Shown piece after piece: positions 46,701 to 49,700 of a stretch of 64,000 nt of DNA. Each line of letters begins with the position of its first letter. Position 1 is the first letter of the stretch. This DNA comes from a virus. Its lineage: Duplodnaviria > Heunggongvirae > Uroviricota > Caudoviricetes. The position numbers were made by a program. The stretch covers positions 32,001 through 96,000 of IMG/VR virus record IMGVR_UViG_651053023_000001; one strand, given 5' to 3'.

Positions 46701-49700
46701 ATTTATGCCTTATACGCCGGTGATTTGTCATGGTGGAAGCAATACGGTTCCACCATACCGGGAGGGAGGTTCCGCAAAGTGACAGCCAACCTGGCGGCGG
46801 CGAAATCATTTTCGTTGGAGTACAGGCGATATTGTGGACCGGCGGAAGGGGTAAATAGCGGCGCGCAGGCTATCAGTCTGGCTGCTGAATCAGGGGCTGA
46901 AGTAGTGGTATTAGTCGGCTATGACTGTTCTCTGCAAAACGGCCTTCATTGGCATGGTGCGCACCCTCAAGCCCTACGGAATCCAACGCAGGTGTCTATT
47001 TCAAAATGGCAACAGCAGTTCCTGGATACCCGCAAAAAACACGCAGATTTACATATTTTGAATGCAAGTAGGAGCAGTGCAATTCAATGTTTCCCAAGAA
47101 TAAATTTAGAGGCAGTGATCGCGTTATTATCGTCGGCAGTGGCCCAAGCGCCGCAAACTTTGTTGCGCCGCGCGGAGTGCCGATTATAGCGGTCAATGGG
47201 GCCATCGACTGGCTGAACCGCGCTTCTTATTTTTTCACACTTGATCCATCGCCAGACAATATGCGGCGCGTTGGTCGTGGCCGCCGTCGCCGTGGTGTTT
47301 GTTATTGCATGGCACTACCCGATGTTAAAGAACGTGAAGTCAGAGACGGCATTCTGTGCTTCCGTCGTGTGGCTGAACGCGGCACAGAGCCAAAAAATAC
47401 GAATTCTCCCGAGTGGTGGGCGTGGCGCTGGTCCGCACATTTCGGCCTTTGCGAAGATGAGAATGAAATTGCCAGCGGCAATAGTGCATATGGTGCTCTG
47501 AACCTGGCTTTCCATATCGGATTCAAACATGTAGCCCTGGTGGGCGTTGACGCTACGCAAGAACTACGCGTTCACTCCGGCGGCACGCCAAAAAATCTAA
47601 GTCACCTGCCTTTGTTATTCCAGTCTGCGCGTGAACAGATTGACGTTGTTTCATGCGGGAAAATGGGAGGTATTCCGCAGATGACTCTTAAAGAATGGCT
47701 GAAGAATACATGATGGCACCCACAATTTATCACCGTATCGACGGTACCAAATACAGGAATGTCTGGGTTGTTGGTGATCTGCATGGTTGCTACACCAGAC
47801 TGATGTCCGAACTCCATCGTGTGGATTTTGACCCGGCGCAGGATTTACTGATATCGGTCGGCGACCTTATCGATCGCGGTACTGAAAATGTCGAATGTCT
47901 GGAACTATTGCAGATGCCCTGGTTCAGGGCAGTAGTGGGGAACCATGAGCTGTTGATGCTCGATGCGTTAAGTCCTGATGGCAACGTGAATAACTGGCTA
48001 ATGAATGGCGGTCAATGGTTCTTCATGCTGGACGCTGATCAGGAAATATTAGCCAGGGCGCTGGTGGAGTTGGTAAGACGACTGCCCTATATCATTGAGT
48101 TGAACACCGGGCAAGAAACTATCGTTATAGCCCATGCCGACTATCCGGATAATGAATATCAATTCGGTAAGGAGGTGCCGCTTTTCAACGTTGTCTGGGC
48201 GCGCGAGCGTATCAGTGATTCGATGGATGATATTGGTGGCGAAATTTCGGGCGCAGATCGTTTTATCTTTGGTCACACTCCGGTGAAAAGCCCGAAGACA
48301 TTCTGGAATCAGCAGTATATCGACACTGGTGCCGTATTTTGCGGAAACCTGACATTGATGAAAGTGAAAGGTGATGGTGCAGCATGAAGATTGCTTTAGT
48401 TTTTCGCTCTGGTGGTGACTATAACGCTTCCGATGTGCAGTGGCTGGTTAATCAACTGCCAAAAGGCTATGAAATTATTTGCCTGACAGACCTGAAGCGT
48501 TTACATGTACCTGGCGTCAAAGTTGTCCCATTGATCAACCAGTGGCAAAAGTGCCGTGGCTGGTGGGCGAAAATCGAGTTGTTCCGACCGGATATAACCG
48601 ATGATCTGTTCTATCTGGATTTGGACACGGTTATTGCCGGTGATATACGCCCAATCCTAGAGCATCCACCAACCAGCTTCACCATGCTTAGGGATTTTTA
48701 CCATCCACAATATCGTGGCAGCGGTGCCCTGTGGATACCAAATAGTGTTAAAGCGCATATCTGGAGTTCATTCTGGCAAGATCCGGAAGGTTGGATTTCT
48801 CGTTGTGTCACTACTGAGTGCTGGGGGGACCAGGGGTTCTTACGAAAGGTTATGGGCGATGATACACCAGCATTTCAGGATCTGTATCCAGGATGGTTTG
48901 TAAGTTACAAGGCCGATGTTGTGGAACCTGGTTCAAAATATGCGAGCGCGCGTTACTCCAGGGGGAATGGGGCATTACCAAAAGACTGCCGAATAATCTT
49001 TTTCCACGGCAAACCGCGACCTCGCGAAGTGTCAGAGGATTGGCCTCCCCTTATCAGCTCATTTTTTGAGCGAGAATCAGAATAATATTGCTCTAATAAT
49101 TCCATATTTTTAAAACGTGATGTACACTCATCACGTTTTTTATTAGAGCAATCTACAAGGTGCACTATGTGGCCATTCCGACGGAAATATCACTACTGGC
49201 TGATCGCCTTTGTTACGCCGACCGGCGGTATCAGGCATGTCATCACCAGGTATCGCAACAAGAGACTCACCTTAGCCAGAATTTTACAGGCTGCCATAGG
49301 TGAGGGACTGGATACAAATTGCGTAGTCCTTCCTCCTTCATACTTAGGAAAAATGACCGAAGCACAAGCTAATACGGAACTTTGAAATGAGCACTTCAGC
49401 ACAAAACCAATCAATCGAAAATGTATGTATCCCTGATGTCCTGAATGCCGGTATCCCGGCCATTATCCAGAACATCCGGGCCGCGCAACGCCGCGTTAGT
49501 TGTGATGACCTCACAGCACGTTTTTTTGATAATGCGGTTCAGTCAGCGGAGATGCTTCACGCACAGCTTATTGATGTTTATAACGCAGAAGCTGATAGCC
49601 ATAACTCCCTGGTAGATGCAGCTGAAAATATGCAGTTGGATCTCGGTCTGAAGGGTAAAGAAATTGAAGAGCTTCAGTTGGAAATTGAACATTTGAAACG

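Follow-up and report, generated by a model that had tools for sequence, protein, structure and literature searches.

Two phage operons meet here at a short interval in which a pair of C1 operator-like sites, inverted relative to each other, brackets a hairpin; the question is whether the repressor acts at this point on the initiation of transcription, on its termination, or on both. The interval lies within a 64,000-nucleotide stretch of viral DNA (hereafter, the window, in which all positions are given unless another genome is named) that belongs to a P1/P7-like phage-plasmid and is 99.1–99.7% identical to P1, P7 and JL22 over the operator region. In the ORF list, the gene directly upstream is pmgQ (48384–49085, + strand; TAA stop codon at 49083–49085), the final gene of the pmgN-pmgO-pmgP-ppp-pmgQ operon and the counterpart of P1 pmgQ (81449–82150) and P7 hdmD; its product has no Pfam match. 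The ORF just before it (47695–48387) is a Metallophos phosphatase according to Pfam, and corresponds to ppp. A preliminary description had located the element between a phosphatase operon and the next operon, which is correct to the extent that the upstream operon includes ppp, but it is pmgQ that adjoins the element, with ppp one gene earlier. The same ORF list places pmgR downstream (49167–49385, + strand; 72 aa; P1 pmgR, P7 shtA) as the first gene of the controlled operon, with a Shine-Dalgarno-like AAGGTG (49157–49162, + strand) 4–6 nt 5′ of its ATG at 49167; pmgR has been reported to be essential for head completion. The second gene of that operon is pmgS (49387–50649, + strand; 420 aa), the product of which is 99.3% identical to P1 PmgS. 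The replicon does depart from P1 elsewhere; for example, 1.6 kb downstream of the site pap carries an IS-flanked enterotoxin insertion.

Judged by their sequence identity, the two inverted sites are the C1 operators Op86a and Op86b that are already known and annotated in P1 and P7. Op86a (OpmgRa; ATTGCTCTAATAATTCC, 49087–49103, + strand) is identical to the P1 protein_bind feature at 82152–82168, and Op86b (OpmgRb; ATTGCTCTAATAAAAAA on the minus strand, 49136–49152) to that at 82201–82217; the operator-like sites of the preliminary description are thereby confirmed. The P1 GenBank note for OpmgRa, formerly Op86a, names ‘phage repressor C1’ and states that the site ‘controls expression of pmgR and pmgS’; P7 Op(sht a/b), at 84533–84549 and 84582–84598, shares both the sequences and the annotation of P1. 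Each site matches the consensus ATTGCTCTAATAAATTT at 14 of 17 bases, with three mismatches and a perfect core (positions 1–13); positions 14–17 of Op86b read AAAA, versus ATTT in the consensus. The sites are asymmetric 17-bp elements, inverted, with centres 49 bp apart and 32 bp between them. A weight matrix was derived from the annotated P1 operators with Op86a and Op86b left out; on it, both scored high (19.3 and 17.7 bits, respectively; the annotated operators range from 9.2 to 27.1) and both coincide with annotated operators; the mean best matrix score in simulated sequence was 14.7. Judging by the GenBank notes and the older binding literature, C1 presumably binds Op86 in vitro.

These operators are part of a larger set. 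Matches to the consensus with three or fewer mismatches number nine in the window versus 0.22 expected, and none of 100 shuffled sequences reached nine. All seven sites that had been listed across the window (14621, 16292, 32321, 35597, 49087, 49136 and 56108) exist, and all are annotated P1 operators; three more can be added, each on the minus strand (35608–35624, 45462–45478 and 46369–46385). The site at 35597 had been described as a perfect match embedded in the dmt stop codon: the match is perfect, but the nesting is the reverse, in that the TAA codon (35604–35606) sits inside the operator, at its positions 8–10. A tblastn search for c1 within the window returned no match; the window stops short of c1, at a point that corresponds to 87.7 kb in P1, and c1 is present in all of the closest complete relatives.

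We assessed the conservation of the element at loci that were found via the PmgS protein, not via the operator, and which comprise 40 haplotypes in five lineages. In the diverged lineages, where PmgS is only ~70% identical and the flanks are variable, hardly any change is seen in the 65-bp span or in the core of either operator. Over the 40 haplotypes each operator core shows a single substitution, while flanking columns deviate in 3–9 haplotypes; positions 1–15 of Op86a are invariant in 39 of the 40, and the core of Op86b is invariant except in haplotype L160. The operator cores are kept along with the hairpin in all five lineages. One representative, JK004, has a C1 homologue (76% identity) and further consensus operators nearby. 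Loci of distant PmgS homologues (~22% identity; e.g., Enterobacter pJBIWA008_2, L006) have a terminator and then a promoter region with no C1-type operator, and are uninformative for this element. A pattern scan of genome contigs yielded two Escherichia loci only.

The hairpin between the operators (49112–49139, + strand) begins 26 nt past the pmgQ stop codon. Its left arm (AAAACGTGATG, 49112–49122) and right arm (CATCACGTTTT, 49129–49139) enclose the 6-nt loop TACACT (49123–49128) and form 11 contiguous pairs, in place of the 9-bp stem previously claimed: seven are of mixed sequence (four of them G-C), and four are A-U/A-T pairs. The free energy is −13.4 kcal/mol (z = −6.3). The + strand continues after the stem as UUUUUUAU. 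A run of six T residues (49136–49141, + strand), invariant in all lineages, is at once the U-tract of the hairpin and positions 12–17 of Op86b. The proposal that a T-run and an A-run each form part of an operator accordingly holds for the former; the A-run (49112–49115) starts 8 nt past the end of Op86a. Compensatory changes at pairs 31-48 (G-C to A-U) and 34-45 (A-U to G-C) occur in four haplotypes and represent approximately two independent events, and several further changes in the stem give G-U wobble pairs.

The hairpin is probably an intrinsic terminator of the upstream operon, and on the + strand only. Its terminator d-score is +10.7 on that strand, where it exceeds zero in all lineages, and −20.7 on the minus strand, where values over the lineages run from −18 to −75; a minus-strand terminator, considered as a candidate, is ruled out by these negative scores. 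The minus-strand tails are UUUUAAAAAU in P1, CUUCAAAAAA in JK004 and CUUUAAAG in pCVMN1543, that is, four U residues in P1 and no U-run in the other two, and no gene converges on this point. The term ‘bidirectional’ is therefore unsupported. A simple promoter/terminator scan made no call for either element at the site; its terminator miss is likely due to the maximal stem taking in the T-run, which is why the terminator was scored separately. The sole Rfam match was a meaningless miRNA (E = 0.84; 19.6 bits versus a gathering score of 211).

Where, then, does transcription of pmgR and pmgS begin? The P1 record contains a predicted sigma-70 promoter, PpmgR (49088–49116, + strand), ‘controlling pmgR and pmgS’, with a −35 of TTGCTC (49088–49093), a 17-bp spacer and a −10 of TAAAAC (49111–49116). 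Its score is weak (5.4 bits, and below the 9-of-12 rule of the scan), and the −10 varies naturally, to TGAAAC, TGAAGC and TAAAGC. A candidate alternative (49100–49128, + strand) combines a −35 of TTCCAT (49100–49105) and a 17-bp spacer with a −10 of TACACT (49123–49128), which is the hairpin loop itself. At 6.5 bits it too falls below the 9-of-12 rule; it is the highest-scoring + strand candidate in the window, in JK004 and in pCVMN1543. The loop hexamer occurs as TACACT, TATCAT or TATTAT, with T1, A2 and T6 kept in all lineages and changes confined to positions 3–5. From these alignments we infer that the loop hexamer is a better conserved −10 candidate than the annotated TAAAAC. A late promoter dependent on Lpa was considered and rejected: nothing in 49060–49170 corresponds to the −22 box (approximately AAATGACTA or GTGACTT) that five annotated late promoters carry. 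A minus-strand promoter (ATGATA-18-TAAAAT) that reaches 10.4 bits in both JK004 and pCVMN1543 was set aside as not conserved: it has no equivalent in P1-type sequences, and no minus-strand candidate in the window exceeds 6.8.

Published RNA-seq of P1vir bears on both the promoter and the terminator. Log fold changes at 10 min were 6.9–7.4 for pmgO, pmgP, ppp and pmgQ (pmgQ, 7.05), 9.02 for pmgR and 9.99 for pmgS (PMC8201110, Table S1), a 4–8-fold rise from pmgQ to pmgR/pmgS; these pmgQ, pmgR and pmgS values are from the wild type, and the corresponding values in a dksA mutant were 6.23 (pmgQ), 9.00 (pmgR) and 9.09 (pmgS) (PMC8201110). At this time pmgR and pmgS are comparable to other C1-controlled early genes: ant1 (10.0), hrdC (9.4) and dmt (8.8) (PMC8201110). 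The rise is consistent with an early promoter at this position. By 30 min the gene-level values were 11.66 for pmgQ, 10.81 for pmgR and 11.70 for pmgS (PMC8201110), with no clear fall across the hairpin; termination may be weak, or it may be masked by PpmgR activity and the missing gene-length normalisation.

We consider it likely that the annotated Op86a/Op86b pair represses an early promoter, PpmgR, embedded within the hairpin that terminates the upstream operon. The two operators would bracket the core of this sigma-70 promoter, which would drive the head genes pmgR-pmgS: Op86a would cover the −35 region, and Op86b approximately +1 to +28, depending on the true −10. In the lysogen, C1 on both sites would block initiation; once C1 is inactivated, PpmgR would fire early. 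The hairpin and its U6 would meanwhile terminate the C1- and Lpa-controlled pmgN-ppp-pmgQ operon, on the + strand only. Promoter and terminator would overlap, such that PpmgR transcripts begin in or just past the hairpin loop; lacking the left arm, these transcripts would escape termination. The match of the sites to annotated operators, their conservation, the covariation of the stem and early expression from a point between pmgQ and pmgR are observed; we infer actual termination, the exact transcription start and C1 occupancy of both sites.

The preliminary description went further, proposing that C1 at both sites influences whether transcription ends at the hairpin or reads through it, and so tunes the coupling of the phosphatase operon to pmgR-pmgS beside controlling initiation. 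Protein roadblocks beside terminators do affect read-through in other systems; here, Op86b overlaps the U-tract, the bases of which are kept even though they worsen the operator, so two functions appear to share them. The geometry argues otherwise: polymerase arriving from pmgQ would reach C1 bound to Op86a (49087–49103) ~25 bp before it reached the hairpin (49112–49139), and any effect would therefore be that of a roadblock upstream of the terminator, not of altered termination. Furthermore, the upstream operon carries C1 operators of its own, Op82 and Op83; being C1-controlled through these, it should deliver little transcription while C1 is active, and it otherwise depends on the late activator, such that upstream transcription and active C1 would rarely coexist. 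The RNA-seq does not bear on this proposal, being from P1vir, where C1 is antagonised. Modulated termination is unsupported and, in our estimation, improbable; the function given in the annotation, C1 repression of PpmgR initiation, accounts for the sites more simply. We give marginally less credence, and hence very little, to an elaboration in which the 65 bp act as an insulator-switch, the loop being the −10 of PpmgR and the U-tract the 3′ third of Op86b, and in which C1 (with Bof) sets both PpmgR initiation and late read-through from the ppp operon into pmgR-pmgS. If it were true, the element would be a repressor-tunable terminator and not a plain operator pair.

Two other readings reassign the hairpin. 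In one, it is no terminator: the repeat would be kept either as a promoter core (with the −10 in its loop and arms that supply the spacer and the first transcribed stretch) or as a palindrome for another dimeric DNA-binding protein, and the symmetrical changes in the arms would reflect protein recognition and not RNA pairing. The −10-like loop hexamer with its invariant T1, A2 and T6, the top score of the loop-hexamer promoter in three lineages, the RNA-seq at 30 min, with no clear fall across the hairpin, and the P1 record, in which no terminator is annotated here, all fit this idea. Yet a stem followed by an invariant U6, 26 nt past a stop codon, is what an intrinsic terminator typically looks like, and its score is positive in all lineages; an A-to-G change in the left arm, opposite U, keeps a wobble pair, which is a signature of RNA and not of a DNA palindrome; and we know of no candidate binding protein. 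We regard this reading as unlikely, albeit the one among these alternatives to be taken most seriously. The other would have transcription start upstream of the hairpin, for example from TCTAAT in Op86a as a −10, making the hairpin a leader terminator that controls pmgR-pmgS. Operator sequence can serve as a −10, since P1 Op53 has the annotated −10 of PkilA inside it, but there is no acceptable −35 16–18 bp upstream of 49092, the transcript would run into the complete terminator every time, neither a competing structure nor a regulator being apparent, and pmgR and pmgS are highly expressed early. Such attenuation strikes us as scarcely credible.

The sites themselves belong to the textbook immunity circuit of P1; the reference records already list them, and beyond annotation they have little significance. 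As a small point of use to work on P1, the start site of the essential pmgR may be mis-assigned in GenBank, because the predicted −10 is not conserved and the loop hexamer is. The apparent nesting of a promoter in a terminator is also relevant to the engineering of deletions or insertions, which could have polar effects on pmgR.

Among known systems, P1 Obanab (Op72a/b, at the ban promoter) and Oc1ab (Op99a/b, at c1) likewise place two inverted 17-bp C1 sites on one promoter; in these, too, operator a supplies TTGCTC as the annotated −35, and the operator abuts or overlaps the preceding stop codon. They differ in that their sites overlap by 6 bp to form a 28-bp unit, whereas Op86a and Op86b are separated by a 32-bp spacer with a hairpin and U-run, for which reason the P1 record lists them as two monovalent operators. 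The monovalent Op88 (OpmgT), Op68 (Odmt) and Op51 (Oc4) also have a T-rich stretch after the operator. Op88 shares with Op86a the arrangement of TTGCTC, a 17-bp spacer and TAAAAC; in Op68 and Op51, the operator has the annotated −35 at its 3′ edge, and the −10 follows after ~20–25 bp, which is the geometry of the loop-hexamer promoter here. All three, however, lack a second inverted operator and a terminator-like hairpin in the promoter. An intrinsic terminator just past a stop codon, packed with the next promoter into 80 bp, is a general feature of compact phage genomes. Terminator/promoter overlaps and roadblocks described elsewhere resemble this locus in their stem and U-tract; here, termination is predicted and a C1 roadblock is conjecture. 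The closest likeness is to P1 OpmgRa/OpmgRb with PpmgR and to P7 Op(sht a/b), with which the locus shares sequence, orientation, spacing and the order pmgQ stop codon, operator a, hairpin, operator b, pmgR, with no difference at the sites.

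Two inverted C1 operator-like sites lie at 49087–49103 (+ strand, ATTGCTCTAATAATTCC) and 49136–49152 (minus strand, ATTGCTCTAATAAAAAA), with sequences as the preliminary description reported. They score 19.3 and 17.7 bits, respectively, against a weight matrix derived from the remaining annotated P1 operators (these two left out), and the consensus ATTGCTCTAATAAATTT, with ≤3 mismatches, has 9 matches in the window vs 0.22 expected, many more than chance would give. Identity over the surrounding ~1.1 kb reaches 99.7% with JL22, 99.5% with P7 and 99.1% with P1; judged by its sequence, the window is a P1/P7-like phage-plasmid. 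In the P1 reference record (AF234172), the left-hand site is the protein-binding feature OpmgRa (former Op86a; P1 82152–82168) and the right-hand one is OpmgRb, which “corresponds to former Op86b” (P1 82201–82217). The same record predicts a sigma-70 promoter for pmgR-pmgS, PpmgR, with its −35 TTGCTC at P1 82153–82158 (window 49088–49093) and its −10 TAAAAC at P1 82176–82181 (window 49111–49116). Both operator sequences are the same in the window and in P1, and the P7 record names the pair Op(sht a/b); because both records annotate it, we identify the element by sequence as the previously known and named Op86a/b. Following the GenBank notes, we take Op86 to be a site defined by C1 binding. The ‘phosphatase operon’ placed upstream does contain ppp (Pfam Metallophos), but the adjoining gene is pmgQ (stop codon 49083–49085), and ppp lies one gene earlier.

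Each strong matrix match in the window (ten in all) falls on an annotated P1 operator. These include all seven operator-like sites listed previously, namely Op51 (14621), Op53 (16292), Op68 (32321), Op72a (35597), Op86a (49087), Op86b (49136, minus strand) and Op88 (56108), plus three that had been missed, all on the minus strand: Op72b (35608–35624), Op82 (O26; 45462–45478) and a variant Op83 (Oppp; 46369–46385; TATGCACTAATTAATTT here vs CATGCACTAATTAATTT in P1). The site at 35597 is the well-known bivalent ban operator; its reported overlap with the dmt stop codon is real, but the nesting is the reverse of that described, in that the dmt ORF ends at 35606 and its TAA occupies operator positions 8–10. 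Since the window stops at the equivalent of P1 87.7 kb, lpa, c1, Op94 and Op99 are absent from it.

Several departures from P1 were also seen elsewhere in the window. Op51 (Oc4; 14621–14637) reads CCTGCTCTAATAAATTT here vs AATGCTCTAATAAATTT in P1, and upstream of it P1 46.6–48.1 kb (immI region, sim genes) fails to align, so the replicon carries a different segment there. Within dmt, 185 non-aligning bp (34309–34494) stand in place of 431 bp of P1, and the methyltransferase is therefore shorter, with a divergent middle part; the longest mechanically called ORF has 672 residues from a putative GTG start at 33588, vs 754 in P1 Dmt. A 4.9-kb insertion (50750–55625) splits pap; 4 bases overlap at the P1 synteny break, in a way that resembles a target-site duplication. 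It holds two IS3-family copies (50722–52019 and 54372–55585), between which lie other transposase fragments and a heat-stable enterotoxin STa/STp gene (ORF 52444–52677, ...NTFYCCELCCNPACAGCY); this P1-like phage-plasmid thus bears an enterotoxin gene. The best matches are ETEC plasmids (‘sta1: heat-stable enterotoxin ST-I group a’), and in PLSDB a single plasmid (94.5% identity) extends across the pap::IS junction. Downstream of Op88, 56997–61798 is a variable cargo region in which P1 synteny breaks and pmgT/pmgU are replaced; its JL22 counterpart carries genes for an adenine methyltransferase and for proteins of Ea22-like and EaA-like type.

Between the two Op86 operators is a hairpin (left arm 49112–49122, AAAACGTGATG; loop 49123–49128, TACACT; right arm 49129–49139, CATCACGTTTT) with 11 contiguous pairs (7 mixed and 4 A-T), whose RNA fold has a free energy of −13.4 kcal/mol (z-scores: + strand −6.3, minus strand −5.4); record AF234172 annotates no terminator at this site. 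To avoid selection on the operator itself, we gathered relatives through the PmgS protein and drew 80 additional loci from IMG/VR. In a three-way DNA alignment with two diverged relatives, Cronobacter phage JK004 and Salmonella plasmid pCVMN1543 (PmgS identity 69–70%), the longest stretches without any change are ATTGCTCTAATAATT and GTTTTTTATTAGAGCAA, against a background of ~65–70% identity. In a set of 40 haplotypes that represents five lineages, one substitution is seen per operator core (haplotype L133 in Op86a, L160 in Op86b), the flanking columns have 3–9 deviating haplotypes each, and the operator-to-operator span is 65 bp, or 66 bp in a few. Rather than being lost beside a retained hairpin, the operator cores are kept across all five lineages. 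JK004 has a gene for a C1 homologue (76% identity), and additional consensus operators occur nearby in both relatives.

The stem core is CGTGATG/CATCACG in P1 types vs CATGGTG/CACCATG in other lineages: two pairs are altered on both sides with pairing preserved (about two independent events), and several A-to-G changes facing U preserve wobble pairs. The d'Aubenton-Carafa terminator score, a heuristic formula applied to ViennaRNA energies, is +10.7 to +13.6 on the + strand in all lineages and −18 to −75 on the minus strand, the latter because of the tail, which is UUUUAAAAA in P1 and lacks a U-run in JK004 and pCVMN1543. Bearing in mind these signs, and that the neighbouring genes are all on the + strand, the sequence is better explained by a one-way terminator of the pmgN-ppp-pmgQ operon than by the bidirectional one proposed. 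The T-run does belong to the right-hand operator, as claimed; the A-run, assigned to the left-hand operator, starts 8 nt past that operator's end. The U-run does not vary, although it gives Op86b AAAA at positions 14–17 where the operator consensus has ATTT (position 15 ranks with the matrix's most informative positions), which suggests that the terminator, not C1, holds these bases.

It had also been proposed that C1 modulates termination or read-through at this hairpin, a mechanism to which we assign a low probability: polymerase arriving from pmgQ would meet C1 on Op86a ahead of transcribing the hairpin, and C1 also controls the upstream operon, by way of Op82 and Op83, while this operon has a late promoter, so that upstream transcription and active C1 would barely coincide in time. 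Published P1vir RNA-seq (PMC8201110, Table S1; log fold changes in wild-type host, not length-normalised) shows a step up in early expression. At 10 min, pmgO, pmgP, ppp and pmgQ stand at 7.39, 6.99, 6.95 and 7.05, and pmgR and pmgS at 9.02 and 9.99; the same pmgQ-to-pmgR step occurs in a dksA host. The step implies that a promoter lying between pmgQ and pmgR is active early, with C1 antagonised, in agreement with the annotation. The 30-min values (11.77, 11.32, 11.49, 11.66, 10.81 and 11.70, in the same gene order), which are not length-normalised, carry no clear sign for or against termination.

As to which −10 this promoter uses, natural variants change the annotated TAAAAC to TGAAAC, TGAAGC or TAAAGC, two of which lack the key A at −11 yet keep pairing with U. 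In the loop, the hexamer reads TACACT, TATCAT or TATTAT, with T1, A2 and T6 invariant and changes confined to positions 3–5. By a simple sigma-70 heuristic based on base frequencies, a promoter using this hexamer (−35 TTCCAT, 49100–49105; −10 TACACT, 49123–49128) tops the + strand ranking in each of the three lineages, at 6.5, 10.1 and 8.5 bits; the annotated promoter in the window reaches 5.4 bits. The annotated −10 is probably not the functional one. With either −10, the PpmgR transcript would start in or past the loop, and would therefore lack the left arm and escape the terminator. Beyond the known Op86a/b, our analysis adds only this predicted nesting of a promoter within a conserved one-way terminator hairpin, and the doubt over the annotated −10.

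Known systems point both ways on the −10: the loop-hexamer promoter resembles annotated Pdmt and P2c4, with its −35 at the operator 3' edge and its −10 ~20 bp beyond, whereas Op88 shares TTGCTC-17-TAAAAC with annotated PpmgR, which counts in favour of the annotated −10. Furthermore, Op86a (49087–49120) and Op88 (56108–56141) share an extended module (28/34 bases; the operator, then (T/A)GATTTTTAAAAC or ATATTTTTAAAAC), and Op68, Op53 and Op51 likewise have T-rich tails after the operator, a pattern that suggests duplication of operator-promoter cassettes within the genome. In Enterobacter plasmid pJBIWA008_2 (locus L006, 2340–2465), a very distant PmgS homologue (22% identity) is preceded by a classic terminator, AACCGCCAAATGGCGGTTTCTTTTT, followed by an A/T-rich promoter region that contains a separate inverted repeat, TTCTAA...TTAGAA; that locus differs from the window site in its operator and resembles it in the order of terminator, then regulated promoter.
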